A stretch of DNA of 60,947 bases, counting the filler, from Nemertoderma westbladi (lineage: Eukaryota; Animalia; Xenacoelomorpha), in the NCBI GenBank assembly GCA_032718475.1. It is 3 parts of 3 records of this genome, joined end to end, with 100 filler letters (N's around TTAATTAATTAA, not from the genome) between each part and the next. Parts side by side here need not be neighbours in the genome. Positions count along the whole stretch, not along the records: positions 1 to 27,076 come from JAUCBJ010001729.1; 2 more parts are not named here. One strand, given 5' to 3'. Position 1 is the first letter of the stretch, and the number at the start of each line of letters is the position of its first letter. The position numbers and the translations under genes were made by a program. The notes under the pieces were generated by a model, which searched no databases, had not been told where the DNA came from, and was given only the letters and a program-made list of their open reading frames with translations. Below, piece after piece: positions 3,034-55,288 of this stretch.

Positions 3034-3290
3034 GTTCGTTATAATCTTGAACATTTTTCGACCAGGTCAATGAGGATCCTGCGATATTCCAGAGGCTTCG
3101 CATCAAACTTATCTAATCTATTTTTACAGCTGAGACCAAACATACTGGGAAGATAACGGCTAAAGGAGTGCTGGGTACGTTCAAATATGCTTATATCTTG
3201 TCAAGATAGGGACACCATATCGAACTGTTATGTTCAATTGTAGGCCTGGCGTAGGTACAATACAACCCCCATCGGAAGGCTGCATTACGA
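3034..3290 (-). mobile_element. CR1-like LINE ORF2 C-terminal fragment
   Basis: Minus-strand translation: LYCTYARPTIEHNSSIWCPYL...ERTQ...GLS.KNRL...LEYRR..IDL..FKII. Confidence 0.7.
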
Positions 3291-3291
3291 T

Positions 3292-3742
3292 GCATTGGAC
3301 AAAATAGACCAAATCTCTAACCGCATCATCCGTTGCCACTTCTCATGTTCTGGAAGACTGGCTAAGAAGTTTCCTAAGGTGGTTCTGATTGTGTGCTACT
3401 CTCCAACTAGTGTTGCACCTGTAGAGGAGGTGGAAAATTTCTACCACAATCTATAAGCAGCTACTGATGGAGTGGATCAGCATGCATTCTTAACATTCCT
3501 GGGAGACTTTAATGCAAGTCTGCATCAATCACCTACATCGCCCTGGGTCTATAGCAATAGTGTCAACCGAAATTCCGTCCATTTTCAGGATTTTATCTCT
3601 GGAAATGGATTGTTTTCGGCTGGAACCCAGTTCAAGAAGCGAACTGGAAAGCTATGGACTCATAGTGGAACCAGTGGTCACAAGTCCCAGATAGACCATA
3701 TTCTGTTTCGTAGGAAGTACAGGAGCTCTATACAAGATTGTA
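3292..3742 (+). mobile_element. RTE-clade LINE endonuclease fragment
   Basis: Motifs CYSPT, LGDFNA, WTH.G.SGHKSQIDHIL. Near-identical to 17970-18420. Confidence 0.85.
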
Positions 3743-3756
3743 AGAGATTGTAAGAG

Positions 3757-4872: not shown

Positions 4873-4971
4873 TGTTAGGACCTAAGAGACTCAACAATTT
4901 TCCTTACCGGTACCAGAACTAAAAAGTCTGAAACCTAGATTATTATTATTATTAAGCACTGTCTGACTGTG
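4873..4971 (+). repeat. 5' LTR of Gypsy A (part shared with the 3' LTR; true end may lie at about 4983-5020)
   Basis: About 99 bp near-identical to 16187-16285. Confidence 0.85.
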
Positions 4972-5007
4972 TACTGTCTAATATAAAAAGTGAAGAATTT
5001 ATATTTT

Positions 5008-6408
5008 ATGCCGGACAATACTGGTACTTCATCGGGATCTCCAACGCCAACTCTGACACTAAATGTTAAGTTACCACAATTTTACGAAAAGAATACTAGG
5101 GTTTGGTTCGACCGGATCGAGGAGATGCTGGCGAATTTATCTGAGACTGTAAAGAAAAATAGCTTAATTCGAGCATTACCAACTCACGTTATATTCGACA
5201 GTGGTGTGCGAGTTTCTGATTCTTTTGAAACAATAAAGGAATGCTTAATAAAGTATTTCGATGATAGTGAAGATCGTCGCCTAAAGAAACTTCTCAAAGA
5301 TCAAGTATTGGGTGACCGAAAGCCGAGTGTGATTTTGAGACACTTACAGAGGTTAGCTCCGAATAATCCTAATATTGTTAAAATGAGATTTTTGGATATT
5401 ATTCCAGAACCAGTCCGACTAGTATTAATTGCTGTAGAAGGAGTGCCTGTAGAAAAACTCGCAGAAATCGCAGATCAAATGGTTGAACGAATGCCAAATT
5501 ATAACTTAGTGAATAATATTAATGAAAGGGGAACAAGTTCACTCACTAGTAACCCTGAAGCTGAGGTTTATAGACAAGGACAAGCCACATCAGCTCTGAC
5601 TATGGAGACATGGTGCCAGAACATAACTCAAGAAATTAACCGATTATCAAGGGCTTGTGAGTCACTTTCTTCTGGAGATGAGAGAGGCAGACCTCGACAA
5701 TCAACCAGTAGTTTTCGCGGAAGAAGATTCGAGAGATCGTCATCTAGATACGGAGTACGTTCCAACTCCTGAACACGTCAATATAACCCAAATGGTAAGT
5801 TATGCTGGTATCACTGGCGGTTTGGGAGAAATTCTACAAAGTGTAGCGGACACTGTGAATGGGTTCAAACACGACAATATAACACAAACCCAAACAATAA
5901 TCAACCTTCGGGAAACCCCAATGCTCCACCACAAGGGCGGCCTGTGATGGAGTGAACTCTATATATGTTGCCGCCAGTCCAGTGGGAGAATTCTTAGCCG
6001 ACAGTGGTAGCGAGTGTAGCGCTTTACCTCTGAGTTATACCACATCGGAAATGATAGATTCACCAAAAATTATTTTGAAAGCAGCCAATGGAACACCAAT
6101 AAAAGTAAATGGACTGAGGCAACTTAAGTTTAAAATATCAGATTTGTGAGATAAACTGTTTGTTTGGAGATTTTATGTTGCAGAGGTTTCCAAACCAATA
6201 CTAGGTATTGATTTTCTTGGCCACCATAAATTACTCATTGATTGTGCTTATAATAGACTGATCCCATTAAATAGTTTACCATGGGAGATTAAGCCAATAA
6301 AAGAATCCGAAAATAAACCTGCTTTATTTAATTTCAAAACTCCAACAATCAATAGGATAATGGTGGAAGTTGAAAATCCATGCTTTAAAGAAAAAGTAGC
6401 AGAATTAG
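5008..6408 (+). pseudogene. Gypsy A gag plus protease, 5' part
   Basis: KLPQFY...WF.RIE gag motif. Premature TGA at 5770-5772 precedes the Zn knuckle. Aspartic protease DSG, with a stop at 6147. Confidence 0.85.
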
Positions 6409-6701
6409 TGTTAGATTATGTATTGTTAGGGCTCTAGTAGACCCTGGCTTGGTGGTGGTTAGATCCAACCTACTGGTCTTTTAGCTACCGGTCCTCTTCT
6501 GGTATTCCGGTATTCAGTCTTTTCTATCTTCTAGGTCTGTAGGTACAGTAACCGTTACCGGTACCTACTGTACTGATGTGCTGTAAGGTGGTGGGTGTGT
6601 TCATTGGTCTGTTGGTTCATATTATTGTTTGATATGCTGTTCTGTATGTCGACCATTAATAAACTGATGCAGCTGGTATTCATTTATTTCCGATCCCAAT
6701 A
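6409..6701 (+). repeat. 5' LTR of Gypsy B
   Basis: Differs from the 3' LTR by about 3 substitutions and one 8-bp duplication. Confidence 0.95.
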
Positions 6702-7242
6702 TGGCGCAGTGATGTACTTGATGTTCCTACAACCCTATTAAAATGGTGGACATTCCAGCGCATTCAGCAGGTTAGATAATTCAACATTATTCTACCGGTC
6801 GCCTCTACTGATTCTGATCTAGGCCTAGCTACCTACCTATACTTCTGGTGGTGTACCTACTCCAGTACTCTTCTAAACTAAGCCCTTGGGACGGACAGTG
6901 GAGTGACTCGCGCTGGTTATCGTTGTCGTTGTGTAGCTACTACGTTGGCGAAAAACACAGCGACGATGGTAGCCTACATCGTCGCTGAGGACCTTGCGCT
7001 GTCCGGGGGCCGTGAGGGGTAGGCAGCGACGCCGGCTAGCCTAATTATAACTACCGGTACCTATTCAATTCACATTCAGCAGTCAGGCAGTATTCCAGTC
7101 TGCCAGTATTCGATAACTACAGATTTTGGCTGATTTGCGTGGAAAGTTTTGCACATTTTTGCAAAATTTTTTCTTTTCGGATTTTTCAAATTTTTTCGGA
7201 TATTTAATTTCCTGAAATTTCTCTAATATTCAACAGTCAGAT

Positions 7243-10200
7243 ATGCCTACTAAAGCTGAACTCGAAACCGAACTGGAGGTTTTAAGAGAACAGTTGGCTG
7301 GTCGTGGTAATCCTGATCCCACCTCAGCTCTTCTACATGCTTTAGTTAAATCACAACGCGATTTGGCTGATTCCTTAGCACAATCCCAAGCCCAAAATGC
7401 CCATCAATTTCAACAATTACTTGGTCAACCACATCAACCTGTAGTTCATCAGGCTGACTCAACCCCTCGTAATCTTCAAATTAAAGCACCAATTGCTTTA
7501 GAACCGGATTTCAGTTTAGCAAAATTTGAAACTTGGAAGTTGGTTTGGGCGGATTATTATTCTGCATTTCAGATGGATAGAATGGCTAGGGATAGGCAAA
7601 TCTGTATTTTCAGGAGTTACCTTTCTATAGGTATGCGCTCTACACTGGAACAAGTTATTGACATTCCTCCTGACACACATGATAATCCTTTAACAGTTCA
7701 GGTGTTAATAGATTGTATTCAAAGTTATTTTCGTGGTAAACGGAATATAGCCCTTGATTGTGTTCAGTTTGATAATAGGAAACAACGTCAAAGTGAAAAT
7801 TTTGATAGCTACAGTCCCGCTCTCAAAAAGCATTCCTTTGATCAATCATTGATCAAACTTTGATCAAACATTGATCAAAGTTTGATCAAATATTGAAATG
7901 TATCAGGCTTATAAATCCTGCCATTGAGTTCTACCAAAGGCGCTGCACTTCAAAGTCTAGATTCCCACTCAGCTGTGTGTCAATCAAGCAGCCCTCTCTC
8001 TCTCTCTCTCTCTGCTCTCTGTGTGTGTAATGCTCCATATGCTCTGTAGGATGTCTGCAGAGCACACAGGACACCACTTCCATATCATACCAAAGGTTTG
8101 TAAGCTATAGCCGTTATTTAAACCAGTTAAAGCCTAGATTATAATAATTTACAGCGATTATCAGAAAATAACAGCCGCAATTGAATCTCCACTTGGCGGT
8201 GTGGTGGTAATGAAATCAAGGGCGGGTATGGACTGTATGGAGTTTAATTCTGAGTTACGCAATGTGTTGGGTGGATGGCTACAATACATCAGAATGGGGG
8301 GGGGGGGGGGGGGGGGGTCCACAACAAGAGAGGGGATGGGATCACTGGGGTTTTTGGAAGGTATTTTAAGGGGTGCGCTGGTGCTAGCGCTCGGATTTAT
8401 TTATTTCTTTATTTACATTTATTACTGTAGTATAATTAGAGACAGGGGCAGGAAGGAAGCTTGTCGAATTTACACAATTACTGTATAAGCAAATGCAATG
8501 CAACGGCAGCCATCGCGCTGCTACGTCAATGGAGGTCTTTGGCCTTGATTCTGATTTAAGGACCATTGAAACTAATTTCTAATATAACAATAATTTAAAA
8601 ATATTCCAAAGGATGTTTTTCTGAACTAGTTGTTAGTGTAATAATAGGCCCTGCCCTACAAGAACAAGACTCAGTCTGGGACACTACCACAACACTGCCA
8701 TGTAAATCCAATCGCGGTCCATCCACAAAGTCAAGCAAGCTCCATCCACTGCCCTGTCAATCACATTGCGACTTGGCCATTAACACAAGCCAGTTCTCGG
8801 CGGGAATCTGAGTTCAAAGGCTTGCCGCAGTTGAGAGATGTAAACTGTTACCTTGAAATCATTTCAATGTCATTTCAATATGAGACAGAAAGTCGGGAAT
8901 TTCGGTGCGTCGATTTCAAGGTCATTTCAATATGCCATCAATGTCATTTCAATGTCAATGCTACTTTCAATGATATTCTATGGTCACATTTTGATCAAAC
9001 TTTGATCAATGTTTGATCAAAGTTTGATCAATGTTTGATCAAAGGAATGGTTTTTGAGAGCGGGACTGTACCTGGTTGCTATTAAAGATCTTGCTCGAGA
9101 TGCTGATCTATGTCGTCATTGTTTCGATCGGCAGTTGACTACTCTAATTATGTCTGGTATTTCTTGCGAGGACACCAGATCTAAACTTCTTGCCTTGACT
9201 CCATTTCCATTGCTTGAAGATGCTGTAAATCTTTGTAGGTCTGAGGAATCAGCCCAAGCTGGAGTTCAGGATTTAAAAAACCCTTCAATCAACCAAGCTT
9301 CTCGACAATCTCGTTTTCACAACAAAAAGCCTTATAATTCCAGGCGCAACAATTCTTCTAAATCCAATTCCAGAAACAATTCTTCAACTACTGGCCCTAT
9401 AGTTTGTTATCGTTGTGGTAAAACAGACCATAAACGCGCTGACTGTCCAGCAAGGAACAAAGATTGTTCTTATTGTGGCAAGGAAGGCCACTTTGCCAAT
9501 GTTTGTCGGTCTAAACAAAATAATTCGAATTTATCTTCAAAACCTAAGACAAAACCCATTAGCCGCATCACCCTTAATTTGGTTGGAAGCCATAATCGAC
9601 AAGCTCCGAAAGTATTTCTGAACTTCTGTCATATCGCAACAGGACATTTATTCGGTTCTCTCAAAGCAACTCCAGATACTGGTGCTGAGGCCACTGTTGC
9701 CGGCTTACATTTTCTTCAGGCCCTTTCTATTGACAAAGAAAATTTACTTCCACCAGACCATGATGATCTTTCTGCTGCTAATGGTAGTCTTCTTTCATGC
9801 ATTGGTCTCCTCCACACCACAATTTCCTATGGCGAATATTCAACTGATGAGCTCATCTGCATTTGTGAAGAAGTCGATGGAATTCTTTTGGCATGGTATA
9901 CTTGTCAAAACCTAGGAATTATTTCAAGTTCATATCCAGAACCAGTGGCAGAAATTCAGTCTGTTGCTTCTTCTAATTCTTCTAATATGTCACCTATTGG
10001 TATTAAAAACTCAATTCCAACAACATCATTCAAGGTTGACTTCGATCTTTCTGATGAACCTTCGCCTTCAGAATGGGATACTGTTAAGCAGAAACTCATA
10101 AAGGCTTATTGTGATGTTTTTGACCAAGATGACAAACTTCGTCCAATGAATGGCCCACCCATGACCATTTCATTAAAAGATGATGCCCAACCATATGCTA

Positions 10201-12830
10201 TTCATACAGCCAGGCAACTTCCTTTAGCCATTAGAGACTGGGCTAAAGCTCGCTTAGAGAAAATGGTTGAACAAGGTATTATTTGTCCAGTTCTGGATAA
10301 CGAACCAACTGATTGGGTCCATCCTCTTGTTGTAGTTCCTAAACCAACAGGCAGTTGGCGCCTTTGTGTTGATTTGACTAAACTAAACAAACATGTTAAA
10401 CGTCCATATCATCCATCGGTTACTCCTCGTGAGGCTGTCAATTCGATTTCTCCATCAGATTGCTTCTTTTCTTCATTAGATGCCAAGGATGGATATTGAC
10501 AGATACCTCTTGATGAATCCAGTCAGAATTTAACAACATTCATTTCCCCTTGGGGTCGATTCAAGTTTCTTAGGAATCCCATGGGATTAACTTCAGCACA
10601 AGATGTGTTTTGTCTTCGTGGTGATATAGCTTTACAGGGATTGGATGGCATTGCTAAAGTAGTTGATGACATTCTAATTCATTCTTCCGATAGTCACAGT
10701 CATCTCGCACATATTATTGCCGTACTGGATCGGTGTCGTGAACACCAGATCAGTCTCAAAGCTGCGAAATTCAAATTAGCTACCCCTGAGGTGTGCTTCG
10801 CAGGATATATAATTAGTAGTAATGGTATTCAAGCGAATCCTTCCAAACTTAATGCTATTGCTGACTTTCCTGTTCCGACCAACATTTCTGAACTTAGAAC
10901 TTTCTTGGGTCTTGTGAACCAACTAGGTGAGTTCACTTCCTCTATTAGCGAAAAGGCAGGCCCTCTTCGGGACCTTCTTAAAGTTAAAAATGTATTCTGT
11001 TGGTCAGAACCCCAAGAAACTGCATTTCAAGCAGTTAAGAAAGCTCTTGTAAGTCCTCCAATTCTAGCTCCATATGATCTATTGCTGCCTACAATGTTGC
11101 AGACAGATGCTTCACGTTTGAAGGGTCTTGGTTTCTCACTTCTTCAGAAACACGACAGCTTTTGGAAACTCATTCAGTGCGGTTCAAGATTCATCACTGA
11201 CACTGAATCACGTTATGCAATGATAGAGCTTGAACTGTTAGCCGTTGTATGGGCTACTAGGAAGTGTAAGGTATATCTTATGGGTCTCCCATCATTCGAG
11301 TTGGTAATTGACCATAAACCTCTTCTTCCTATCCTAAACAATTATACTTTGGATATGATAGACAATCCCCGAATCCAACGTCTTAAAGAGAAACTCACCC
11401 TTTATTTTTTCAATACAACATGGAGAAAGGGAAGTGAACATTCCATTCCAGACGCACTTTCCCGTGCCCCTGTTTCAGATCCTACTCCAGAGGATATTCT
11501 TTGTGATACAGATGTCAATGACCATGTTTCTGCAGTCATTCGTCACGTGTCTACCTCAATTGTTGTCTCTGATGCTCCAAGTCATCTCAAGGATTCATAT
11601 ATTGAGTCTATCTGATCATCTGCAAAGGATGATATTTCTTACATGGCTTTGGTGGATGCTGTTATTTCTGGATTTCCCTCAACATCCACACAATGTTCTG
11701 TGCACATACGCCCATTCTGGAATGTGCGACATCAGTTATCTTGTGAAGATAATCTTCTTTTATTAGGTTCCCGGATTGTAATTCCATTTTCCCTCCGCAA
11801 GGATGTCCTGAAGCACCTTCATGATGCTCATCAGGGCATTGGACGTTCTAAGAGGAGAGCTAGGCAAACTGTATTCTGGCCTGGTATCAATAGCGATATT
11901 ACAAACATAGTCAATTCTTGTCCCCAGTGTCAACTTTATCAACCAAGTTTACCTAAAGAGTCTCTCCACAGCGACCCTCATCCATGTCTTCCAATGGAAG
12001 ATTGCTCTGCTGATCTTTTCTACTTCAGCACCTGGTCATACCTGGTTTATGTCGATAGATATTCTGGGTGGCCATGCGTTCATTCTTGGCATGCCGATCC
12101 TTCCAGCTCTCAAGTTATTTCAGCTCTTCGAGGATGGTTCAAAGATTTCGGTATTCCAAAACGCCTTCGTTCTGATGGTGGTACACAATTCAATTCAGCA
12201 CGTTATCATGATTTCTTATCCGAATGGAATATCATCCCTGAGTATTCTACTCCTGAGTATCCTCAGTCTAATGGCCATGCAGAGGGGGCTGTAAAGGCCA
12301 TGAAATCATTGATAAAAAAGTTAGATATCAAAGGAGATCTAAACTCTACTTGCTTTGTTCGTGGTTTGCTGGAATGGAGAAATACTCCTAAAGAACATGG
12401 TATGTCTCCAGCTCAACTGTTGTTCGGTAGATCCCTCCGTTCCACTATACCAGCTCATTCGTCCACACTGGCAGGTGATTCATTCCCTATCCCTGGTCCT
12501 TCAACGTCTTCAGCAACTGAATCATATTATAATGATCATGCTCACGACTTAACCCCGATTCCTATTGGTTCCCGAGTTTGCATCCAGAGTGCACATTCCA
12601 AACTATGGAACAAATCTGGTATCGTCCTTTCCCGTGGTACTAGGCGAGATTACAGGATTGAACTAGACAATGGTCGGGTGTATTGGAGAAATCGTCGTTT
12701 TCTGCGTTCCATCCCAGATGACTCTTCTCTTCGTGACATAATGCCTCAAAAACAGGTACAGTTCGCTGATGATCTTCCCAGGCGCAGTTCGAGAACTCAC
12801 AAGCAACCAGCAAGATTCGGAGTTCAATGA
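7243..12830 (+). pseudogene. Gypsy B gag-pol (single frame) broken by a MITE and two premature stops
   Basis: Two CCHC knuckles, protease DTGA, RT VVDD, RNase H QTDAS, integrase HHCC and D,D35E. Stops at 10497-10499 (GYW to GY*) and 11613-11615. Confidence 0.93.
7812..9068. mobile_element. Non-autonomous DNA transposon (MITE; Tc1/mariner-like TA target)
   Basis: About 79-bp TIRs starting CAGTCCCGCTCTCAAAAA, containing repeated TTGATCAA palindromes. TA TSD. Excision restores gag DSY|LVAIKD. Confidence 0.95.
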
Positions 12831-12900
12831 ACTGACCTATTGGTGGTGGTTGGATTTTTTTTTTCAGTACAAATGTCTCCTACATTGTTCTTGGGGGAGA

Positions 12901-13201
12901 TGTTAGATTATGTATTGTTAGGGCTCTAGTAGACCCTGGCTTGGTGGTGGTTAGATCCAACCTACTGGTCTTTTCTCTACCGGTCCTCTTCTGGTATTCC
13001 GGTATTCAGTCTTTTCTATCTTCTAGGTCTGTAGGTACAGTAACCGTTACCGGTACCTACTGTACTGCTGTACTGATGTGCTGTAAGGTGGTGGGTGTGT
13101 TCGTTGGTCTGTTGGTTCATATTATTGTTTGATATGCTGTTCTGTATGTCGACCATTAATAAACTGATGCAGCTGGTATTCATTTATTTCCGATCCCAAT
13201 A
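12901..13201 (+). repeat. 3' LTR of Gypsy B
   Basis: Matches 6409-6701. Confidence 0.95.
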
Positions 13202-13206
13202 ATTAG

Positions 13207-16140
13207 TTAATGAATATTCAGAATTATTTACACAAGTAAACATTGCAGATCCAATAAAACATAAAATTAAACACAATATTCTTACTAATGGTCCTCCTAG
13301 TGTCAGTAAACCACGCCGATTATTTGGAGAAAAGTTGGTAGTGGCTAAAAAGACTTTTGAAGATTGGGAGAGAAATGGTATATGTTATAGGGGAGAATCT
13401 CCTTACGCGTCACCTTTACATGTTGCTTTTCAAGCAAAAACAAAAACTACTCCTTACCGCTCATGTGGAGACTATAGAAAACTTAATAATCAAACAATTC
13501 CAGATCATTACCCAATGCCGAATTTGAGTGATTTGTCAAATAGTTTCCATAACTGCAAAGTATTTTCCAAAATCGACCTGGCTTCTGCATATACCCAAAT
13601 ACCTGTAGATGTAGAGGATCAGAAGAAAACTGGGATTACAACCCCATTCGGGTTGTTTATTTTCAAACGAATGACATATCGTATGAAGAATGCATCATCC
13701 ACATTTCAGCGACTCATGGGCACTGCTCTCAGTGGACTTTCATTTGTATGGTGTTATTTAGATGATGTTACTGTGGCGAGCGCCGATGCAGAAGAACATT
13801 TTAAACATTTAATGATTGTATTTAAACGATTAGCGCAATTTGGTTTAAAATTAAGAGAAAGCAAATGCAAATTTTTTTGTTCGAGTGTAACATTTGTTGG
13901 TGCTCATATCTCGAGTAAGGGAATAAAACCGATCGAAGAGAAAGTAAAAGCAATTGTTCAGTTTGAAAAACCTAGCACAATTAAATCTTTGAAACGTTTC
14001 TTGGGTATGTCGGGATTCTACCACCGTTTTGTCAATGGATTCTCAAGTATTGCGGCCCCATTAACCGATATGACTCGTGGTCGTGAACAGAAAACTAAAA
14101 TTTTGGTGTGGAATGAAAAATCAGAGAAAGCTTTCAATGATTTAAAAGAAGCATTGAAAAACTCAGTCACACTAGCTTTCTCAGATCCCAAGGCAACACT
14201 CGAACTAACCACAGATGCTTCTGGTATAGCCGTTGGCGCTGTATTACATAAGATAGTAAATGATATTAAACAACCTTTGGCTTTCTTTTCTGCTAAATTA
14301 ACCCCGTTAGAAGCAAAAAAGTCAGCATTTGACAGAGAATTATTAGCAATATACCTGGCCCTGAAACATTATAATTGGTTAATTGGTACGAATTTTAAAA
14401 TTAAAACGGACCACAAACCCTTAGTTAATGCACTGCAGATGAGAAATCCATCTCCTCAGCAGACGCGATGGCTATCCTATATCTCCGAATTTAACTGTGT
14501 CATACAACATGTATCAGGAGTATCTAATGTAGTAGCCGATACATTATCACGGGAATGTTTAAATGTTAAAGTCGAATTTGATGAGTCATTAGCCAAAGCT
14601 CAAAATAACGATGAAACTTTAGTCAATTTTTTCAAGGGAACTAGTTTACCGTTGAAGAAACTAATGATTGGAAACTCTAATTTGATTTGTGATGCAAGTA
14701 AAGAATATTTGAGACCCTATGTTCCTACAGAAATGCGTTATCCATTATTTCAAGAGTTACATGGATTGGCTCATATGGGAGTTCGACCGACAAACGAAAC
14801 TGGTGTTAGATAAATATATTTGGCTGGGAGTAAAGAAAGATGTTAGAAAATGGTGTCATGAATGCCTACAGTGCCAACAGTGTAAAGTTACCAGACATAC
14901 TCGTTCTCCTATTGGCTCAATCCCCACAACTAATCGATTCCAAACTGTTCATATCGATCTAGTTGGTCCCTTACCACCTTCTAAATGATATAATCATGTA
15001 GTTACAATGATCGACAGATTTACTCGATGGGTAGAAGTAATTCCTGTTCGAAACACAGACGCCGTAACTGTTGCAAAGGCTATGATAACAAATTGGATTT
15101 CTAGATTTGGAGTCCCCAGAGAACTAATATCCGACAGAGGTACACAATTTGAATCAGCATTTTGGGGAGAATTAATGAGATTGTTGGGAATAGATCGAAA
15201 GAGAACTACTACTTACCATCCACAATCTAACGGGGCGATTGAACGCTTTCATAGGACATTAAAAAACTCCCTAAGAGCTCATGCAATAAATTCAACTTGG
15301 GCTGATACATTACCACTAACATTATTGGGATTAAGAAATAGTATTTCACCGGAGGGTTATTCACCTACCCAGATGGTATATGGTGGAACGGTAGACCTAC
15401 CGCATCAGTATTTTGTTCATACGGACTATAATCTAGATATTAAAAATCTTCCTGAGTATAAGAATGATCTATTCAAGACTATTAACTCATTTGTAGCTCC
15501 AGAACGAAGAAATGAAGCGCCCACATATGTTCCAAAATCGATGGATTTTGTTAAATGGTGTCGAAATGAGCGTTTGAATTCGTCATTGAGTGATCGATAT
15601 TCTGGACCTTATGAGATATTACGGAAAGACAAAAAAACTGTAACCATTAACATAAAAGGAAAATAATCAAAGGTTTCCATTGATCGGACTAAACCTGCTT
15701 TCATCTCAAATGAACACCATCCTGAAAATTTTGAAAGATATGAAACCGATTTGATCCCAATAAGAACTAAACAAAGAAATGAAGACCTTTCAAACAAGAC
15801 ACTAACTGAACTTGATAATAAAATACAAGATGTAAGAAGTAAATTAAAGCCAGGATGCATTGTAATGGTTATGCAACCTGGTTCGTCAACATGGCCTGGG
15901 ATTATAGAAACGAATATAGATCTTGATTTTGACACTGTTTTAATACGTTTTTATGGAAATGATAGAAAAGTCATGATTCGTCTAGGACATATTGAATTAT
16001 TTAATCCAAATAAACTTTACAGGGAAAGAACAAACGCTCGAGCATTTGGTAAGGCTATCGAGTTAGCTACGATACAATATTATAAGACAAACTCTTTAAA
16101 TCGAAAAAAACCTGTGAGATTTAATTTAATTCCAAAATAG
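13207..16140 (+). pseudogene. Gypsy A pol 3' part: RT, RNase H, integrase, PWWP-like domain
   Basis: ORFs 13335-14813, 14719-14988, 15007-15666 and 15751-16140 join through one frameshift (about 14790) and two in-frame stops (14986, 15664). Confidence 0.92.
15841..16077 (+). other. PWWP-like domain at the integrase C-terminus
   Basis: LKPGCIVMVMQPGSSTWPGII...VLIRFYGND...I.LFNP...AFGKAIELA follows the PWWP pattern GDLVWAK.KG.PWWP..V...V.FFG...L.PF...F..A..EA. Confidence 0.75.
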
Positions 16141-16186
16141 AAAACTTATCGAGTAAATGAAGTTCCACTTCTCATAAGGGGGGTTA

Positions 16187-16285
16187 TGTTAGGACCTAAG
16201 AGACTCAACAATATTCCTTACCGGTACCAGAACTAAAAAGTCTGAAACCTAGATTATTATTATTATTAAGCACTGTCTGACTGTG
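16187..16285 (+). repeat. 3' LTR of Gypsy A, truncated and fused to the satellite
   Basis: Preceded by the PPT. Runs into the satellite through shared GACTGTG. Confidence 0.85.
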
Positions 16286-17515: not shown

Positions 17516-18520
17516 TCAGTTAACTCCTGACCGGCTGCCTGTCTCACCCCCTACTGGAGAGAGAGCAGCCAACAATTCTTTGAGTCCCTTTCATGATGAC
17601 CTTTCTGGCCCAAACCCTGGGTCACCAGGGAGGCCAGATTGTGATGGGGAGAGGGATTCTGGAGTTGGATGCTACTCTCATGTTCCACCCCGACCAATAA
17701 AGCCATTGGTGAATCTGAGGCAAGTCACTAGACTAGCCTCAGTAAACACCCTAACACTCGGGTCCCCAATGCGACAAGGTGAGCTGACTGCCTTGGCAGA
17801 TAAGCTTTCTCTTAGCGCAGTGGGTGTTCAAGAGCACCGAATGCAGACTGGACAGACTGATGAGGTTCTGATTAAGGACATGGGGGGCGGTTGGCGACTC
17901 GCCCTCGCGTCAGCAGATGATAGTGGCAATGGTGGAATTGGTCTATTGATGAATCCAACTGCACATGCAGCATTGGACAAAATAGACCAAATCTCTAACC
18001 GCATCATCCGTTGCCACTTCTCATGTTCTGAAAGACTGGCTAAGAAGTTTCGTAAGGTGGTTCTGATTGTGTGCTACTCTCCAACTAGTGTTGCCCCTGT
18101 AGAGGAGGTGGAAAATTTCTACCACAATCTACAAGCAGCTACTGATGGAGTGGATCAGCATGCATTCTTAACATTCCTGGGAGACTTTAATGCAATTCTG
18201 CATTAATCACCTACATCGCCCTGGGTCTATAGCAATAGTGTTAACCGAAATTCTGTCCATCTTCAGGATTTTATCTCTGGAAATGGATTGTTTTCGGCTG
18301 GAACCCAGTTCAAGAAGCGAACTGGAAAGCTATGGACTCATAGTGGACCCAGTGGTCACAAGTCCCAGATAGACCATATTCTGTTTCGTAGGAAATACAG
18401 GAGCTCTATACAAGACTGTAATGCATTTACACTTCGACCCTTCTCCAGTGATCACCGCCTTATTGTGGCCAAGGTAAGACTTAGTCTGCGTGCTAGCAGA
18501 ACAACGAAATCTGCCTTGCC
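17516..18520 (+). mobile_element. RTE-clade LINE 5' region (APE endonuclease), 3'-truncated, embedded in the satellite
   Basis: Motifs SVNTLTL, VGVQEHR, GNGGIGLL, CYSPT, GDFNA, SQIDHIL, SDHRL. One stop at 18204. Confidence 0.9.
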
Positions 18521-20159: not shown

Positions 20160-23100
20160 TTAATTACTACAACTCAATCCGTCTAACTGCCAAGGATCGC
20201 GGGAACCTTTTGAACACAACGTCTCCCAACCGGTATTCCCACCCTCAACATCCTGTTTGACATCACCGACGCATTTGGACATGCAGTGCACACACTGCCC
20301 GCTAGAGGCGTCCCACCAGCAGTCAGGGTCCCGCAAGAAGACGCACTTAGCACAGCTGTCCGCGCGGTCACAATTCCATCGTGGTAACTTAGCAACAGAA
20401 TCCTCACTCAACATATATACGCTGTCCTGGGTAAGGGTAACCCTAGTAACTGATTCGTTCTGCATTGCCTGTATTGATTGAACAATTACATTTACATATT
20501 AATTAATTATTAATAATTAAATTACTGTTATTATTTTTACTGAATATTAAATTGAAACCAATTTGAATCATCTATAAAAATGTTTCATTCTGGACAAACA
20601 TATTTGGACTATACTACTACTACTAGGTCGAGCGAACTCGGACAGTGGAAATGAGATCCTTCCAGACTTCTCGTTTCTCCCAAGTTCAGTATCCCTTTCA
20701 AGTTGATCTATATATGTTATGGCCGGTCGTACACGACTACGCTTTCCATGAGTTGGTTGCCAGAGAAGTAGATCTGGTATGACCTCGTCTTTACTTCGCC
20801 AGCAGTGCCCGCTGAATCTTAATCTGCGTTCACGGAGGGTGGTTGATACAGGTGGTATTGTACCATAAAGCTCGGCGTTTGTCATGTGTTGTATCCAGCT
20901 GATGTTTAGGGCTGCCCTTAGTTAGTAGTCTTGTGTAGCTACCATCGATTCGTTGTTCAGGTGATTTAGTAAGTGTCCTGGTCTCACCCCCATATAAAAA
21001 TACACTTTCCACTGTGGCTCGAAAGAACTTAGTCTTCAGGTGCCTGGAGAGATCTGATTTCCAGAAGGTATCCATTTTTGATAGAGCTACCCAAGCCTTT
21101 GCTTTCCTAAATTCTATGTCCTCCATTTTGAGTTAATAGCGCAAAATGAAGCACATACTTCTAAGCTATCATCTGATATATCAATGACTCTCATTAGTGG
21201 TTGTTTGACATTTTTATTTGAAATTTACCTAACTCGATCATTGCGAAATTTGGTGTTATTACACAAAGTCAAAAGCAACTAAGTCAAATTTTAAAGTCAA
21301 AAGAACCTAATACAGACAATTTTAAATATGAGTTATGTCATTTGTATCCGTTTTCTTTTTCAGGTGGGTACTGCCAGACTGCATAAGGCAAAAACACTTA
21401 ACTGAGTTTAAGTGGCCACTCGTCTTGCTCTATCAGTCTATAGACATATGGATATGTACGAAAAGTATAAGAAAAAACATATCAGAGTATGCTCTATCTA
21501 ATGATGACACAGCCATAGTAGCTACAGCATGCTAAAAGAGCAAACAAAATACCTTTGGGGCTTGATATCTCAGAATGAAGTTTTTGGAGTTACATGCCTT
21601 TCACTTTTGGGGTCATTTTACTGTTCGATTGTTCAATGGAAAAATAATTCTGGAAAAATGTAGCGCACCAGAAGTTTGTAATTGCTATGATATCCCTATC
21701 TGTTTCCTGGGTTACATACCTGAACCTCTTCGACCAAATGGAACCCTCCTGATTGGTTGTAGATGATCTTTAATAACCAACCGTGGCTTGTTCCGGCATA
21801 GACCACAGTCCACTTGGGTTGAGTGACGTCAGGGGTTACGATGGCAATGCAGGTGACGCGGTAATGTTTCTGTGTTAAAAGAAACATCGGGGGGCCGAGT
21901 TGAGGGACAGGTTTGGATAAAAGGGGGTGCGCGCGGGCGAATCTGTGAGAAAATTAGAAAATTATATATTTAAATATTTTATTTGAGTCTTCCATTGAAC
22001 ACATTAACAACTGCAGAGATAATATACCAATTATATATTATCTGACAATACACACGGCAATATATAAATGAAACAAAAACAAGTCTATCCCAAATACATA
22101 AAGCTCTAACTACCTTACTCTTTCAACTTCTCTAAATCCCTAATCTCTAACGGCCTTATGTAATGTAACTGAACTAACTCGATTGTTAAGCTGGGCGGAC
22201 TCCGGGAGCACAGCCCCGGACGGGGTTCGGGTACCTTCGGGAATGGGTTCAATTTGAGAGATTCGTCGAAGAAATCTCCTGTGTCGAATAGGTTGTCGAT
22301 GTCTGACAGTTTATAAACACAGACACTAGAAGCGGGGAGTCCTAGTAGTATATAATAATAATATATGAATATTATTCATATTAATAAATTGATAGCAAAT
22401 CATTTAATAGGATAGAATGTAAGAATCGACGTTCTCCTAATAATTATGATATTATCGTCAGCAAAAATAGTTTAATATCAAAGAATAATTAAAATAAACT
22501 CATTCTACTAAATCTCTAAATTGACTAAATCTCATTCTACTTATTCTACTAATAATACTAATTCATAATGAAAATATGCTCATGTTGTGCTAATTGCCAG
22601 GATGGTCCTTCTGTGACATTGAATACCACGGACAACAACAATAATATGTACCGGTATGTACTTACTGTATGTAAAGTGTATTTTCAATCTAAAACAATAT
22701 ATATTTGATAGTTTTTGTTGTCTATCGGGGTTATTGTAAAACATCGCCATATGTAATAACGATTTCATAATGAATAACAAGTAATAAATAACCAAGGTTA
22801 TTTAACACACCAGAATTCGGAGTTGCAAAAGATACATACAGTAACTCATCATCATCGATAGAATCCATAACCACGGCGGAAGTGACGTAATTGAAGACAA
22901 AGTGATCTCGGTAACTCGTGGGATCGAGTCGGCAGGTGAGGTCGGCCTTTAGGAATGATGTGAACCAATCCTTTTCATCGTCGGGAGATTTCGTATCGGA
23001 AGCACAGGAGCGGGCAATACGTGAGTAAATACGAAACTCTTTAGATTCGTAGGCGGCAGCGGGTTCACGGTAAACTATGTACTGGAATAGATATATAATA

Positions 23101-25250
23101 ATAATATATAAAATATAAAATATATATGGATTATGGATATTTGGTGTCTGAAAGTACTAGTATGCACATGGCTAGCCTCACTATCGGATTCTAAATCTCA
23201 AATATCGTTCTATCCGATTTTCGTTCTGTTTCTATAATTATGTAGAGAAACATTGAGTGCAAGAATTGTTATGAAGAATTAAAAATTTGGCTTAAAAAAA
23301 ATTATGGAATTTTTTTATTAATTTTTAAATAATTTTCAAAAACAAAAATTGAAAATTATGTCTACACAATCTTTGCGCGGATTATTTTATTAATACTAAT
23401 ATCTACTAATATTCTATCCTAATCTACCAATTCTGCATTAGAACTAAAATCGATTGAGTAGTTAAAAAGTACATAGAGAAAGTGTCTCAAAAAAGCCAAC
23501 ATGAGAAAGATGACATGTTATGGAAAAAGAGATTACCGATTCGCCATAAAATTTGACATCAGAAAACACAAAAAGCTATCAATAAAAATCGGATCCCATC
23601 ACCCCCCCCCCCCCCCCCCACCCCCCTTATGGTTAGACCAATTAGTGCAGCAGAAGTTCCAGTATGCCTACACCTCTATGGAAGTCTATGTTGGGCTCTT
23701 TATGTTGGGCATAAAGGAGGTGCCACCTGTGGCTGCATAGACCCCTTTACTAGGGCAAATCTGGTCCTGTAACTAGGACCCCCTTCGCTCTGGGATAAGG
23801 ACGCACTTGGTCCTGGATTATGGACGCATACACTTGGTGCAGGAGTATATGGCCTGACCAGGCAGATGGTGATCTACCAATGGCTGGTCAGGAGTAGAGT
23901 GTTCTCATGTCCACTCTGAGTGCACTTCACTGCGACCTGCACCTGGAGGCAGGGGTACAGGGCAAGTCCCAGCAGATGTGTGATATTTGCCCCGAGAGCT
24001 GACTCGGCAAAAAAGCACCCCCCAACCCCTAGTATGGATTACATTAGTAATGCGGAGGTCAGGCCACTAGAGGCCAGTGTAATTACCGGACACAATTGGA
24101 CTCACAGGCATAAGTTATCTCCTGACCGGCTGCCTGTCTAACCCTGTACTGGAGAGAGAGAGATGCCTGCAATTCTGTGAGTCCCTTTCATTATGACTTT
24201 TCTGGCCCAAACACTGGGTCACCAGGGAGGCCAGATTGTTAGGGGGAGTGGGATTCTGGAGTTGGAAGTTACTCTCATGTTCCACCCCGACCAACCAAAC
24301 CATTATTGGTGAATCTGAGACGAGAGTCTGAGTAGAAGACTCAGACTCTTGTCTGAGTCTGAGACACTGAGTCGAAACCAATTAATTGATCAACTGACTA
24401 TATACATTATTGTATATAGGACCCCTGCAATACTACATAAATTACATTATCTACTACATAAACCAACTTGGTATTGTCCAAACAGGAATTGTTTAACAAA
24501 GACACATCCTTCCTTATGGAATAGATTCATCTGCCTGAATGTGGGAACAAATGTATAGTTGGCACCATCTAGTAAATCAGGGGGCTCAGGGCTCCTCACT
24601 GTGAAAGTGGTTCGAAGTATCACTCGTGTCCGGTGGCTACCGCGACCATGAGTGGATGCGGTAAACAGCTGCCCCGCCGAGTTGTAAACGGCAGTGTTGG
24701 AAGTCCTAAATGGAAAGTTTGGTATGAAAACTCTTCCTCTCATCTGTGAGATTAAAGTGAAAGTTGCTGAAGTGGCGATCAAATCAAATAGTTTACATTC
24801 AGGAACTTCACCATAAATTCCACAAGCGAGTAATAAGCCATCTGGACGAAATAATAACAATCTGATGTAATTCTCGCAGATTATATGGGACGTACAATTA
24901 TACGTTGCCCATTCTAGACTTTTTCCAGTATCATTTATGTTGTTTTTATCCAACAAGAAGATGTGGTTTCTAGCTGAAATTAATAAGTGATTTCCATTGG
25001 ATGTAAATATGATATCATGGAGATTCGGGGATATTTTGGATTTATCGTTTTTGTACCATCGATCCGGTCTAGGGATCCAACTTTGAACCGAGTTAAATGG
25101 CGAATTTAAATGAAGGCGTGGGCTGTTAGGTTGCACATCCAGCGGAAGTATGGTCTCAAAAGAAGTCACAATATTGAGTAGGGAGATAAAAATACAGAAA
25201 CAATGTAGATTATTAAGGAAGTTCATATTGAATATTCGATTGACATACAT
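20160..25250 (-). CDS. Semaphorin (signal peptide + Sema + PSI), about 582 aa; exons 25250-24468, 23081-22811, 22341-22179, 21942-21720, 20468-20160
   Basis: GT-AG introns with consistent phases. Sema motifs: ARNHIF, CENYIR, ACG, YSRIARSC, WFTSFLKADLTC, SSVCVY, VPEPRPGLC, HPLL, GT.HG.LLK. PSI: C...SCAKC...RDPDCWW. The C-terminal end is uncertain. Confidence 0.9.
20611..21124 (-). mobile_element. RTE LINE 3' fragment in semaphorin intron 4
   Basis: Motifs FRATVESVFLYGGE, RRLRFSGHCWR, LLWQP. Ends in a (TAG)n tail. Confidence 0.85.
23640..24322 (+). mobile_element. RTE LINE 5' UTR/ORF-start fragment in semaphorin intron 1
   Basis: 24114-24322 is homologous to 17520-17722. The upstream GC-rich part is inferred to be 5' UTR. 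Confidence 0.65.
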
Positions 25251-29267: not shown

Positions 29268-29389
29268 ATATCAGTATATCACTATTATTATAATCGAGTT
29301 ATATTGGTGTTGTAAGGGTCTAAGCCACGATTCTAAGTAAAACAAATTCCGGGCTCTCGATAAAAACTGTACCACGTAACGAACCTAGT

Positions 29390-29875
29390 TTGGGTAAATT
29401 ACTTATACAAAAACGAGAACCAACCCTAGCACTTGGCAACCACCCGTGTGGTCAATCTCGGTGTCTAACATGCCCAGTGATAAACGACCTCTCACACACA
29501 CCATGGGGAGACCGTATTCGAGGCCGGTTCAACTGTAAGTCCCATAATGTTTTATATATAATAACGTGTAATGAACACCAGACCCAGTACTACCTCGGCC
29601 AAACTGAGCAGCACCTCCACAAACGACTCAACAAGCACCGGGAGAATATCCAAGAATATCGGAAGTCCCTAAATGCCCCTCCTAAACCCAACAAACCGAA
29701 CGTGGTGACCAGCAACCCAGAAGTCATCCTTCTGGAACACTTCGCCCAGTGTCGGAAATATACTGTTACGTGCGTACAGCAATTTCGTAATCACCACCGG
29801 CGTATTCACACCGAAGCCATCCTTATTAATTTACACCGCCCTCCCCTCAACAAAGTTATTCCACCATTATACTAA
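29390..29875 (+). CDS. Penelope GIY-YIG endonuclease (C-terminal part of the ORF)
   Basis: CxxxxCxxC, then CKSHNVLYIITC...YYLGQT...RLNKH...HF...EAILI...PPLN. Confidence 0.88.
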   Translation: MGKLLIQKREPTLALGNHPCGQSRCLTCPVINDLSHTPWGDRIRGRFNCKSHNVLYIITCNEHQTQYYLGQTEQHLHKRLNKHRENIQEYRKSLNAPPKPNKPNVVTSNPEVILLEHFAQCRKYTVTCVQQFRNHHRRIHTEAILINLHRPPLNKVIPPLY

Positions 29876-45577: not shown

Positions 45578-48500
45578 AGTTCGGCAATCAAAGCAATATT
45601 GCAATATACAGATATAAGAATAACAATATTATATATATAACAGCAAAGCAGGCATTTGCAATTAAGCGGTATTATCAGTTAGCTGTTACCGACAATAACA
45701 AACAGTCGGCATCACTTTATAACAAAACCAGTAAAAGGTCAACATGCAAACTCACGGTATTATATATATAAGCAATATTAACGGCATATTAGGCCTTAGG
45801 CAGTTAAGGTTATGAATCAGTTACCTACAGCAGTACAGACAACAGTAACCGGTATATTCGGATTCTGTATTGCCGTAAAACAGCTGATCCACCACACTAA
45901 TGCATAAAAGCATACTGTAGAAAATTATAATACTATACCCCATCACCATTTTAAAGTAGTAAAGCAGTTTTGGATTGCACATACCCCCACGTCGCGACAT
46001 ATTTTCTTTCGTCGCGAAACTAAGCAGGATGCTTAACGTGGCGTCCATAAGACGTTATATAGACGGATGGGGTAGACTGAGTTTGACACTTGGATGATAC
46101 CACCGGCGATGAACAGGGAATCATACCCGATGATGCGTTGGTAACACTAGGAATTGGGGCATCTGAAACCTCCAAGGGTATAAGAAGATTTCTTGTGGTT
46201 ATTCTTCCACGAAGAAGAATTTCGACTGCTCGAACGACACCATCACGTCCTGTTAATAGTTTGTGGACCCGAGCTAAACGCCATTGTCCTCGGGGTGCAC
46301 GTTCTTTAACAAGAACAAGATCTCCCAGGTTGGGAGTGTTATATGACTGTTGAGCAGTTCTCCAGGTACGCAAAGATGCCAGATACTGTTGTAACCAAAT
46401 CTTCCAGTAACTTTGAGCCAACCGGTCTCTTGAGAGCAGGCCTCGGCGAAGCTGGGAAGATTCGACAATACGATAATCGACTGATGAATCAGGTGGTGGA
46501 CTACCATATAAGAAATGGCCTGGAGTTATAGCTAGACAATCATTAGGATCTTTAGAAACAGCACTTAAAGGTCTAAGGTTAATTACTGCTTCCACCTCAG
46601 CAGTCACCGCCTCTAATTGTGCTCGAGATAATTTACGTTTCGTTCGTTGATGCTGCTCTACCTTAATGAGAAAGTTAGTAGAATCATCAAGTTCATGTCC
46701 CTGAAGAGATCCAAAAGCTTTGAGATTAGGGTAGCGAGTATTGTGGATAAACCGGCAAATCCAAGCTAAGATACGAACAGGGTGGTTTATAGAGGAATAT
46801 TTATGCAGGTCTAGCAAATTCCAATCATGGGTAAAGGGAATAGATACAATGGTTAGTAATTGTAGAGGTGGAGAAGGCTCATCCGGCCAGAAGGATTCAG
46901 GGTATAAGATAAAAGGTGGACCATGCAGGTATAGGTCATTTGTCGATAATGATGATAAGCTGCATCCTCGAGAAGGAACATCGGCTGGGTTCTGTTCTGA
47001 ACATACATATCTCCATTGACTAGGAGTAGTAAGTTTACTAATTTCTAATAACCTGTTGTTGACAAATACATCACGTTGGGATGTACCCTTATGGATACGA
47101 GCAAGAGTACAGGTAGAATCAGACCAGAGATGAATATATTGTGGTATAAACAGATACTCAACAACATGGTGTGCAAATCGGGCTCCAATCAGGGCAGCCA
47201 TTAATTCAAGTCGGGGTGTGCTTAATCTCAATTTTATAGGTGCAACTCGAGATTTGGCAAAGTATATAGTGGGTTGGTAAGAAGGTTGAGTTACATAAGC
47301 AACAAATGCATATGCATAGGATGATGCATCACAAAAAATATGCAGTCTGCAGTTGCCATTCAGGTTTATACTTCGAGGGAAGGGGATAATAATACCAACA
47401 TCAACCACCCAGTTATTCCATTCCATCTGAAGATCATGAGAGAGTGGTTGACCACTTAGTTCCAGAATCACTGGACTTCTGAACTATTCGACGAACCAGC
47501 AGAATCCAAGGGCTTAGCAAGCCTAATGGATCAAAAACCTGAGCATAGGTTCTCAAAATCTGCCGACGAGTAAGTGAGTTTGGCGAAGATATATGAGAAG
47601 TATCTACATAAATGATGTCTCGTGACATATCCCATGATAAGCCCAAAATCCTAGTAGGATTGATAGTAATTCGGAGATTCATCCCCGCAACAGCAAAGAG
47701 TTCTTTAACAAGTTCATAAAATGCCATGGCAGAATCTGGATTATCACTTCCATACAAGAAATCATCACAATAAAGTGAGATAATAATTGCCTTAAATAAC
47801 TCAGGATTAGGGGGAGCTTTTGTATGAATGTGGTGGCGAATAGTAGAATGAAGTAAGTAAGAACTCGGTTTGAGCCCAAACGGAATTCGTTTGAACTGAT
47901 AAGACTCTCCTTTCCAGATGATTTTTACCCATTGACGGTCTTCGGGATGTATTTCAATCTGATGATATGCTGCTTCTATATCCGTAACTACAACATATGG
48001 ATGGTGGCGAGATCTTAAAAGTACATCAACCATTGAAGCTAATAAATTTGGTCCCACATCAAGGCAAGAATTTAGAGTAACTCCATTACAATCAGGAGAA
48101 GAGCCATTAAAAACGACACGGTATTTGCGTGAAGAAAATACACCATGATGTGGGAGGTAGAATCCAATATCCTTACCAGTATTAGCAGGCTCAATTATGC
48201 CATCCATTGACAATTTGGCAAATTTCTCTTCGTATATAGCCTTTGTTTGAGGATTTAAGGATGAAGTAACTTTATGTTGGCGAGAAACAACTGCACTATA
48301 ATTAGTTACAGGTCTCTGATTTCCAAGGAAATGTAATCGGACTTGATAATGAGGTGGATCCTCTTTAGAGATTACAGGAATAATTTCAGGTACAAAATGA
48401 ATCTCACTCTCTTTAATTCCAATAGTTTCTAAGTTCCATAGATTGGACACTTCTATAGGTTCTGTTAATATTAAGGAAGGAGATAAACCCATATTAATGC

Positions 48501-53900: not shown

Positions 53901-55288
53901 ATTGCGAGTATCCCCAGCGGCGTGCAAACGAGCAGAGAGAGACAGGTTGACGTCGCGAGAGGGCGGACGAAGCGTCGAGCCCGATCAGAAGAGGGAAGAA
54001 GAACAGTGGAGTTTAACCGGGAGGTCGACGAGAGATCTCACGAGCGGGAGTACTGCACTACAGAGAGAAGAAAGGAAGAGAGTAGAAGAAGTGTCGCCGC
54101 GAACGACAGGAGAGCGAGGACGGATAGCGAGCCGTCGGTAGTAGAGGTGGAGACGGAGAGTCAGTGGGGTCGAACTTCGGGAGATTGCCGTCGCCCCGGA
54201 GAAACGCGACCTGACGAGGCGTATTACGCGCAGAGAGAGGGGTACGGGATGTACCAGCACGAGAACGAGAGCAGTAGAGGGGATCGAATAGAAACTTCCC
54301 GACGGGATATACCTACCGATCGAGAATACGGTAGCCGCCGGGAGGATTATTTGAGAAGATTAAACTTTGATCCCGAGCGACACATACAGACTGCAGGACA
54401 TACTGTAGGCCTTACTGCACATACCATAGGCCATGCTGAGAGAGATAATGTAGGTGATAGGATAGCGCGAACAACGGGATTAAACCCGGAAGTCGCGGAA
54501 TACATACCGGCAGGTAGGCCAGAAGTTGATAGGCCTATACCGGTACCAGCACAGCAGTATGACTACAGCATGCAAGGACATAACATATACCCAGGGGAGG
54601 GGAGAATTATTGCGGATAGGTGTATGGGCCCCAATATATTAACATCAACCCCAGTACCAAACATACCGGTGGGGGGGGGGGGGGGCAGGGTGACATTCCC
54701 CCATCACAATATCAACAATATACCCCAATAGGAGTAAGAACATCGAACCCCTTGGACGAGAATAGATCGTGCGACACAGAAATATGGAGGGGGCCGCTAC
54801 CCCCTATGATATATCCAAGTCAGAGGAAAGCGACAGACAGGACGAACGGACCGCACCCAATGGGAGAACCTATGCAGCATGCATCGAACCCATTGGAAGT
54901 GCAAGCCATGGGGATGGCCACGTTAATCGATGCATTAAAGACCAGGATCGAGTTACCACCCGTGGAACCATTCAAATTCGATGGAAGTAGGCCGGAAGAA
55001 TACCTACAGTTTCGGCGCATGTATAGTAACGAAATATTAACAAAGAACTTGACGCAGGCGGAGTGCCTAAAGTATCTGCAAGTATATACAGGGGGCCCAG
55101 CATACGACATCGTGAGGCAATACCAGGGTGGCTTCACGACGGCATGGCGGGCGTTAGACAGGGAATATGGGCACCCGGCCAAGATCATCCGGCAGACCCT
55201 GAGAGGTATAACATCGGGTGGCCTACAGGATAACCCCGTTAGCATAAAGACATTCGCTAACAAAGTAGAGAAGGTGCTAATGGTCTAA
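50940..55288 (+). mobile_element. BEL/Pao LTR retrotransposon 2, 5' part (putative LTR 50940-51569 plus very long gag), 3'-truncated
   Basis: TGTTA...TAACA segment with AATAAA. gag from 51625 has a coiled coil, an Asn-rich tract and 20-aa repeats, and ends in the Pao gag core PFKFDGS..EY.QF...LKYL..YTGG.A...AW..LDREYG.P. Confidence 0.75.

Follow-up and report, generated by a model that had tools for sequence, protein, structure and literature searches.

An integrase–PWWP fusion in a CsRn1-like Ty3/Gypsy retrotransposon of Nemertoderma westbladi and its relatives

A decayed CsRn1-like Ty3/Gypsy retrotransposon in the genome of the xenacoelomorph Nemertoderma westbladi encodes a PWWP-type domain in frame behind its integrase, and the same tail is found in 16 related proteins, the bearers forming one clade in trees of RT-RNase H and of the integrase. 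The element lies in the first part (positions 1 to 27,076, record JAUCBJ010001729.1) of the window, which is the whole stretch of 60,947 nucleotides that was analysed, assembled from three parts of assembly GCA_032718475.1 with filler between them. An earlier note, made from the sequence alone, had proposed that a Gypsy integrase is fused here to a PWWP-like chromatin reader across a single stop codon, and that the domain may tether the integrase for target-site selection. The fusion is borne out by the frame, by the relatives and by the predicted fold, while the tethering role is the reading that is discussed below as the preferred one.

Anatomy and classification of the element

The element occupies positions 4873-16285 of the window and consists of the following parts:

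4873..5020, + strand: 5' LTR, start firm and end provisional; it starts with the sequence found at 16187
4987..5856, + strand: gag (DUF7041; Pfam E = 1e-4, under the cut-off), with a stop at 5770
5022..5039, + strand: candidate primer binding site, at the sole TGG in 4873-5100
5904..6408, + strand: start of pol, protease region, with a stop at 6147; the frame overlaps gag
6409..13201, + strand: second, unrelated Gypsy inserted into pol, with both LTRs and a target duplication of 5 bp
13203..14813, + strand: RT and RNase H of the outer element (Pfam RVT_1, E = 2e-24; RT_RNaseH, E = 3e-23)
14797..15702, + strand: integrase with zinc finger, DDE core and GPY/F-type C-terminal module (Pfam rve, E = 2e-11; tblastn)
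15703..15840, + strand: variable linker between the integrase module and the PWWP domain
15841..16098, + strand: PWWP-type domain (Pfam PF00855, hhalign, model, fold searches)
16108..16122, + strand: short RVxF-type motif at the end of Pol (motif counts in relatives)
16176..16183, + strand: polypurine tract (PPT), from sequence, immediately 5' of the LTR start
16187..16285, + strand: truncated 3' LTR; a 31-bp minisatellite starts at the cut

The order of the pol domains (protease, RT, RNase H, integrase) is that of Ty3/Gypsy elements, and the best PDB match of the family profile is the Ty3-G Gag-Pol protein (E = 2e-124). Both LTRs start with TG, the PPT precedes the 3' LTR, and the two LTRs show one mismatch in the 97 bases compared. 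A loose contig end is seen at 16285 in three sequencing runs of the species, and contigs of other copies extend beyond this position with the sequence seen from 4972 on. The minisatellite that starts at 16285 is also found before the 5' LTR, and the target site duplication, which has 4 bp in the CsRn1 clade, is unreadable here because the 3' end of the element has been lost in the minisatellite.

The gag frame encodes a knuckle of the form CX2HX9CX3C at 5803-5856, downstream of the stop at 5770. This frame and its first ATG (5008) start within the presumed 5' LTR and cross the candidate primer site (4987-5040). At the start of pol, a slippery-type heptamer (5910-5916) presumably represents a putative -1 frameshift site, and the protease region is 40-50% identical to the relatives P0001 and P0002 by tblastn. 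The RT-RNase H frame is open across 13203-14813. The integrase is broken by a shift of frame near 14800 and by two stops, at 14986 and 15664, and the family profile of its GPY/F-type module matches the C-terminal domain of the MLV integrase (2m9u, E = 0.002). With stops at 5770, 6147 and 14986, the frame change near 14800 and a nested Gypsy, the copy in the window is dead.

The element is classified as CsRn1-like, and it is not filed as a member of the CsRn1 clade because a tRNA-Trp primer site was not found; the trees described below are built from sequences other than the named CsRn1 elements. In this one decayed copy, the sole TGG after the 5' LTR (5022) does not open with the Trp-type motif. 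The Gag knuckle is a defining feature of the CsRn1 clade, and no chromodomain was found in CsRn1-like elements (PMC2582038). With CsRn1, PwRn1 and AgCR1-14 the element shares the knuckle CX2HX9CX3C, the GPY/F module, overlapping gag and pol frames and the lack of an env-sized frame, but it differs from them by the added PWWP domain and by its non-Trp candidate primer site.

The integrase–PWWP frame and other copies in the species

As had been claimed, the integrase (14989-15666) and its tail (15667-16140) are read in one frame, which a single TAA at 15664-15666 splits. By translation, this stop lies inside the GPY/F-type C-terminal module, and the tail motifs that were quoted for the PWWP-like domain are found in the translated frame. 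The tail also adjoins the PPT and 3' LTR in the way described before, with its stop (16138-16140) located 35 nt 5' of the purine run and the LTR starting at 16187. In addition, the intact relative P0001 aligns to the window by tblastn in a single alignment (14797-16137) that runs through the PWWP domain to the end.

The element was found in three sequencing runs from two studies, with one run possibly being the source of the window. At 15664, all three runs yield contigs that differ from the window (64 of 79, 25 of 49 and 206 of 206 depth units); contigs that agree with it come from two of the runs, one per study. The stop is copy-specific, and reading through it, as the earlier note did, agrees with its absence from other copies in the same species; it is also real, since the letter of the window recurs in contigs of both studies. 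A sequencing error at 15664 was ruled out on this same ground, and programmed read-through of the stop was ruled out because the stop is absent from the other copies and from all relatives. As a separate observation, runs X1 and X3 contain loose contig ends at 15663-15667, which suggests that a further family copy has an LTR-type insertion with a short duplication at this place.

An 866-nt contig from run X3 spans the end of the integrase, the linker, the PWWP domain, the PPT and the LTR start unbroken. This second copy is damaged too, carrying a 5-nt insertion at 15889 and two stops, and no intact copy was seen among the contigs of the three runs. In the copy-to-copy comparison, for which 34 of the 44 differences of one contig could be classed, the domain differs from that of the window by three synonymous and nine replacement changes and one stop, with 22% of the sites being synonymous. 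The two copies show neutral decay with no purifying signal in the domain, which is expected of two dead copies and adds nothing in favour of the proposed role of the domain. A second LTR subfamily is seen in runs X2 and X3, in which the first 48 LTR bases are the same and are followed by different sequence (from 16234).

Sequence and fold of the domain

Pfam PF00855 matches the tail of the window over profile positions 3-89 of 93 with 19.7 bits (E = 0.0013), which is below the cut-off of 25.6. With the tail alone as query, a word-indexed search gave no match among 177 longer candidates, and a single-sequence search against the PDB gave no meaningful match. Such results would fit a likeness due to chance, or a piece of host sequence picked up by one copy only, but this reading is exceedingly improbable: it is refuted by the 16 relatives with the same architecture in one clade, and it is also at odds with the second genomic copy, in which integrase, domain, PPT and LTR start share one contig.

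Given the sub-cut-off Pfam score, the window domain is assigned to the PWWP family because of its position, its hhalign match to the relatives and its model. The hhalign comparison to the relatives yields a probability of 92.7% (E = 4e-7). With a profile made solely from the 16 relatives, the window frame comes first among the 1037 six-frame peptides of the window, with a weak score on the tail of 15.0 bits compared to 12.4 bits for the best of 1000 tail shuffles. The alignment-guided model (17 rows) has a pLDDT of 89.4 and comprises five strands followed by a C-terminal helix, in agreement with the five-stranded barrel and helix that characterize PWWP domains; it leans on the alignment of the relatives and is not independent of it, because the single-sequence fold of the tail was poor (pLDDT 38). 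With this model as query, Foldseek gives 12 matches at E<=0.001, every one of them a PWWP domain, and the best match in VIA is the PWWP domain of MSH6 (Z 10.9, rmsd 1.8 Å, 79 residues), with all 50 rows being PWWP-containing chains. Compared to cellular PWWP domains, the modelled second loop is shorter and the C-terminal helix is single and long. Taken together, the PWWP match and fold that had been read from the sequence are present in the tail, as seen in the Pfam match, hhalign, the model and both fold searches.

The window domain is 14-26% identical to those of the relatives, compared to 52-54% for RT-RNase H, and is the most diverged domain of the clade. The median identity of the window to the relatives is 46% in the integrase module, 9% in the linker and 21% in the PWWP domain.

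Relatives and origin of the domain

A search with the integrase and tail as query gave 303 proteins at E<=1e-10. Among the best 120 of these 303, PF00855 was found in the top five only (P0001-P0005), in all cases in frame with the integrase; four of them are open without a break from the protease region through the PWWP domain, and one starts from RNase H, with PWWP scores of 33.5-53.6 bits. A second search, with a profile of module and tail against 1.84 billion representatives, added 11 further tails (P0126-P0132, P0138, P0139, P0144 and P0146) and one cellular N-PAC among the best 150 matches listed. Ten of these 11 tails contain at least the end of the integrase module, three of them including just its last residues, and P0146 is without an integrase part. 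A third search with a six-row alignment added no member. Pfam was run on 21 of the best 150, and the PWWP profile on all 274 collected proteins, where it matched the 16 relatives and two N-PAC proteins only. One of the collected proteins, P0134, is a beetle N-PAC/GLYR1 protein with four PWWP domains. The Pfam cut-off for PF00855 is passed by 14 of the 16 relatives (28.7-53.6 bits). The segment thus occurs, in frame, in other members of the family, as its proposed membership of the element implies. At the DNA level, a metagenome scan for relatives with a PWWP domain gave five loci (31-38% identity) without PWWP, and a viral scan gave none.

The median identity among the relatives is 48% in the integrase module, 34% in the PWWP domain and 12% in the linker, the length of which ranges from roughly 24 to 119 residues. 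The domain, at 34% compared to 12% for the linker, has therefore been kept over a long divergence.

In the RT-RNase H region, the window is 52-54% identical to P0001-P0004, and the next 21 proteins among the matches listed reach at most 46%. In trees of this region, with the PWWP columns left out, the five bearers form one side of a branch, in line with the separate lineage that had been suspected, with a support of 100 (46 rows), 100 (120 rows, FastTree) and 100/99 (23 rows); 14 of 133 blast hits were dropped for short cover. An integrase tree without the PWWP domain (171 rows; 37 of 207 hits dropped) likewise places ten bearers on one side of a branch, with a support of 94. No PWWP-less proteins are found inside the bearer group in the trees, the underlying searches favouring bearers: with the PWWP domain included in the query, members of the clade from which it has been lost may be sampled too sparsely. 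A long stem branch separates the bearers from their PWWP-less relatives. On these trees the bearers form one small clade, and a single capture of the PWWP domain is the simplest reading.

Behind the domain, an RVxF-type motif is present in 12 of 17 PWWP rows (1.2 expected). Of 74 Pol tails without a PWWP domain, 39 also contain the motif (4.3 expected), and many CsRn1-like elements carry it with or without PWWP; 40 of 114 long Pol proteins were dropped from this count since the end of the module was not located. The PWWP domain was therefore inserted after the GPY/F module and ahead of an older motif. We take this motif at the Pol C-terminus to resemble a PP1 docking motif, and a literature search gave no report of such a motif in integrases.

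The best cellular sequence matches of the family profile are NSD2 (E 1e-9) and NSD3 (E 3e-9). A donor gene could not be singled out, because the scores of cellular PWWP subfamilies are close (40 vs 31 bits). Among the cellular PWWP proteins (NSD2/NSD3, MSH6, HDGF/HRP-2/PSIP1, DNMT3, N-PAC/GLYR1), the family is thus most alike to NSD2/NSD3 in sequence, and to MSH6 in structure.

The aromatic cage

The family profile aligns to Y233, W236 and F266 of NSD2 as the cage positions, and these residues are named as the cage in bioRxiv 2021.03.05.433782. The corresponding residues of the window are Ser (15883), Trp (15892) and Phe (15949), leaving the three-aromatic cage incomplete. The Ser that the earlier note had pointed out at one cage position is real, being common to the window and the second genomic copy. 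A full aromatic cage is found in 9 of the 16 relatives, the other seven being without it, and the first, solvent-side position is aromatic in 11 of 16. The cage Ser is a trait of the lineage of the window and not of the clade. The Trp-Pro pair is invariant in all 17 rows of relatives and window.

These residues bear on an alternative in which the PWWP domain adds general DNA or nucleosome affinity, or chromosome retention, with no bias toward a mark or region. Counting the window, 8 of 17 rows have an incomplete cage, and in 16 of the 17 domains K+R exceeds D+E, which would suit the binding of nucleosomal DNA by basic PWWP surfaces as described, in the part covered, in PMC3663649. Plant group II chromodomains are also without cage residues (PMC3605345). 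However, the retention of all three aromatic residues in 9 of 16 relatives, and of an aromatic first position in 11, argues against general affinity as the sole role, and this alternative is considered unlikely, albeit with an appreciable chance.

Proposed function and comparison to known systems

The preferred reading, and one that we hold to be more probable than not, is that the PWWP domain serves the integrase as its own nucleosome tether and so influences the choice of target sites, in analogy to the chromoviruses. A targeting role is suggested because the domain occupies the position of the chromodomain in chromoviruses and because of the biology of PWWP domains as exemplified by LEDGF. 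In the proposed mechanism, the protease of the element would cleave Pol to release an integrase-PWWP protein, and the multimeric integration complex would display several PWWP domains on flexible linkers. These would bind to nucleosomal DNA and, where the cage is full, also to methyl-lysine, most likely H3K36me2/3, by which integration would be drawn to chromatin carrying this mark. In the lineage of the window, nucleosome binding is expected to be kept and mark selectivity to be lost, because the first cage residue is Ser and the equivalent LEDGF mutant loses specificity: for LEDGF Y18A, the relevant portion of PMC3663649 reports that specificity is reduced much more than affinity.

A more specific claim, that the integrase's own PWWP domain reads H3K36-methylated nucleosomes and thereby inserts the element into transcribed gene bodies, is put forward tentatively as possible. 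If true, the clade would provide the first case of an LTR element encoding its own tether to active chromatin, and its sub-lineages would have retuned or dropped the cage. The sole insertion seen is located within a minisatellite that has a duplicated LINE remnant on either side, and not evidently in a gene body; a single site tests nothing in this respect.

Alternatively, the domain could serve a purpose other than target choice: once the element has inserted, it might, for example, recruit host chromatin factors or compete with them, in conjunction with the RVxF-type motif. The conservation of this short terminal motif behind the domain would agree with such a role, as would the reported capture of methyl-CpG-binding or methyltransferase domains by other retrotransposons. 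However, the PWWP domain is joined to the integrase where chromoviruses carry their targeting domains, and the motif is older than the PWWP domain and occurs without it, which makes a post-insertion role distinctly improbable.

With regard to the tether reading, chromoviruses carry a chromodomain at the integrase C-terminus, behind the GPY/F module (PMC3605345 and PMC5053271, in part). The chromoviruses MAGGY and plant Tekay, Reina, Galadriel and CRM are thus alike in having a Royal-family reader behind a Gypsy GPY/F module, and members with a degenerate cage also exist among them (group II; same sources). The reader is a chromodomain there and a PWWP domain here, and the mark is H3K9me there, whereas H3K36me is predicted here. 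No chromo family was found in the tail or in the five relatives, for which Pfam gives PWWP. The element is not a chromovirus, though by this analogy it probably works like one.

The second comparison is to lentiviruses, in which the PWWP domain of LEDGF tethers the integrase to H3K36me3 (PMC3663649, in part). The lentiviral integrase together with LEDGF/p75 (PSIP1) or HRP-2 is alike in that a PWWP domain is linked to the integration complex (parts of PMC5053271, PMC8149907 and PMC3663649). In lentiviruses, the PWWP domain resides in a host protein that is bound through its integrase-binding domain, whereas in the element of the window it is self-encoded and covalently joined, as a predicted tether. 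Self-encoded tethers of LTR elements known so far are chromodomains pointing to heterochromatin, and the only PWWP/H3K36me route known so far is that of the lentiviruses, which borrow a factor of the host. A clade in which a PWWP domain was captured once and kept would have arrived at this solution convergently, with the reader encoded by the element itself. Its natural series of full cage, partial cage and no domain would furthermore allow reader specificity to be compared with insertion patterns.

A clade with an integrase–PWWP fusion is apparently undescribed so far. Literature pairing PWWP with retrotransposons described no such clade, Repbase, GyDB and subscription journals being outside the scope of this search, and in the consulted parts of PMC10414810, PMC5906684, PMC6673722, PMC8149907 and PMC5053271 PWWP relates to DNMT3, LEDGF or the Royal family. 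The survey of Grau-Bove et al. (bioRxiv 10.1101/2021.11.30.470311) presents 823 candidate fusions of chromatin domains and transposons; among these are SNF2 and SET fusions as well as Gypsy elements that carry a chromo or PHD reader at the C-terminus. The text of this preprint, as far as covered, mentions PWWP twice, neither time on transposons; its Fig. 5d or Supplementary Table 6 might list the fusion. An idea voiced for bromodomains in the covered part of the preprint, that transposons avoid readers of active chromatin, is put to the test by the present clade.

The nested element and the surroundings in the window

The Gypsy nested in pol has Pfam matches for zf-CCHC, RT, RNase H and integrase, and neither Pfam nor the PWWP profile found a PWWP domain in its frames. 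Its LTRs end with TA and differ from each other by three mismatches and one 8-nt indel, and a 1.1-kb insertion that has inverted ends of 84 nt disrupts this element at about 7807-9073.

The outer element is located between a small Cys-rich frame and the last identifiable exon of a semaphorin. It is flanked by LINE endonuclease remnants (3290-3745 and 17970-18420) that are 97% identical, and these remnants together with three arrays of one 31-bp minisatellite reflect either a local duplication or an effect of the assembly. The semaphorin-like gene (20160-25250, - strand) comprises Sema and PSI exons, its 3' end not being found, and because of these exons the window is animal DNA. The small secreted Cys-rich gene (813-1670, + strand) ends with a CC...CN pattern and has no Pfam match; this end presumably resembles Ly6/uPAR proteins. 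Further along the window, a GIY-YIG frame at 29324-29875 (+ strand) suggests a Penelope remnant, a BEL/Pao element (46020-50659, - strand) is recognizable by Peptidase_A17, RVT_1, DUF1759 and DUF5641, and a second DUF1759 gag is located at 54620-55288 (+ strand).
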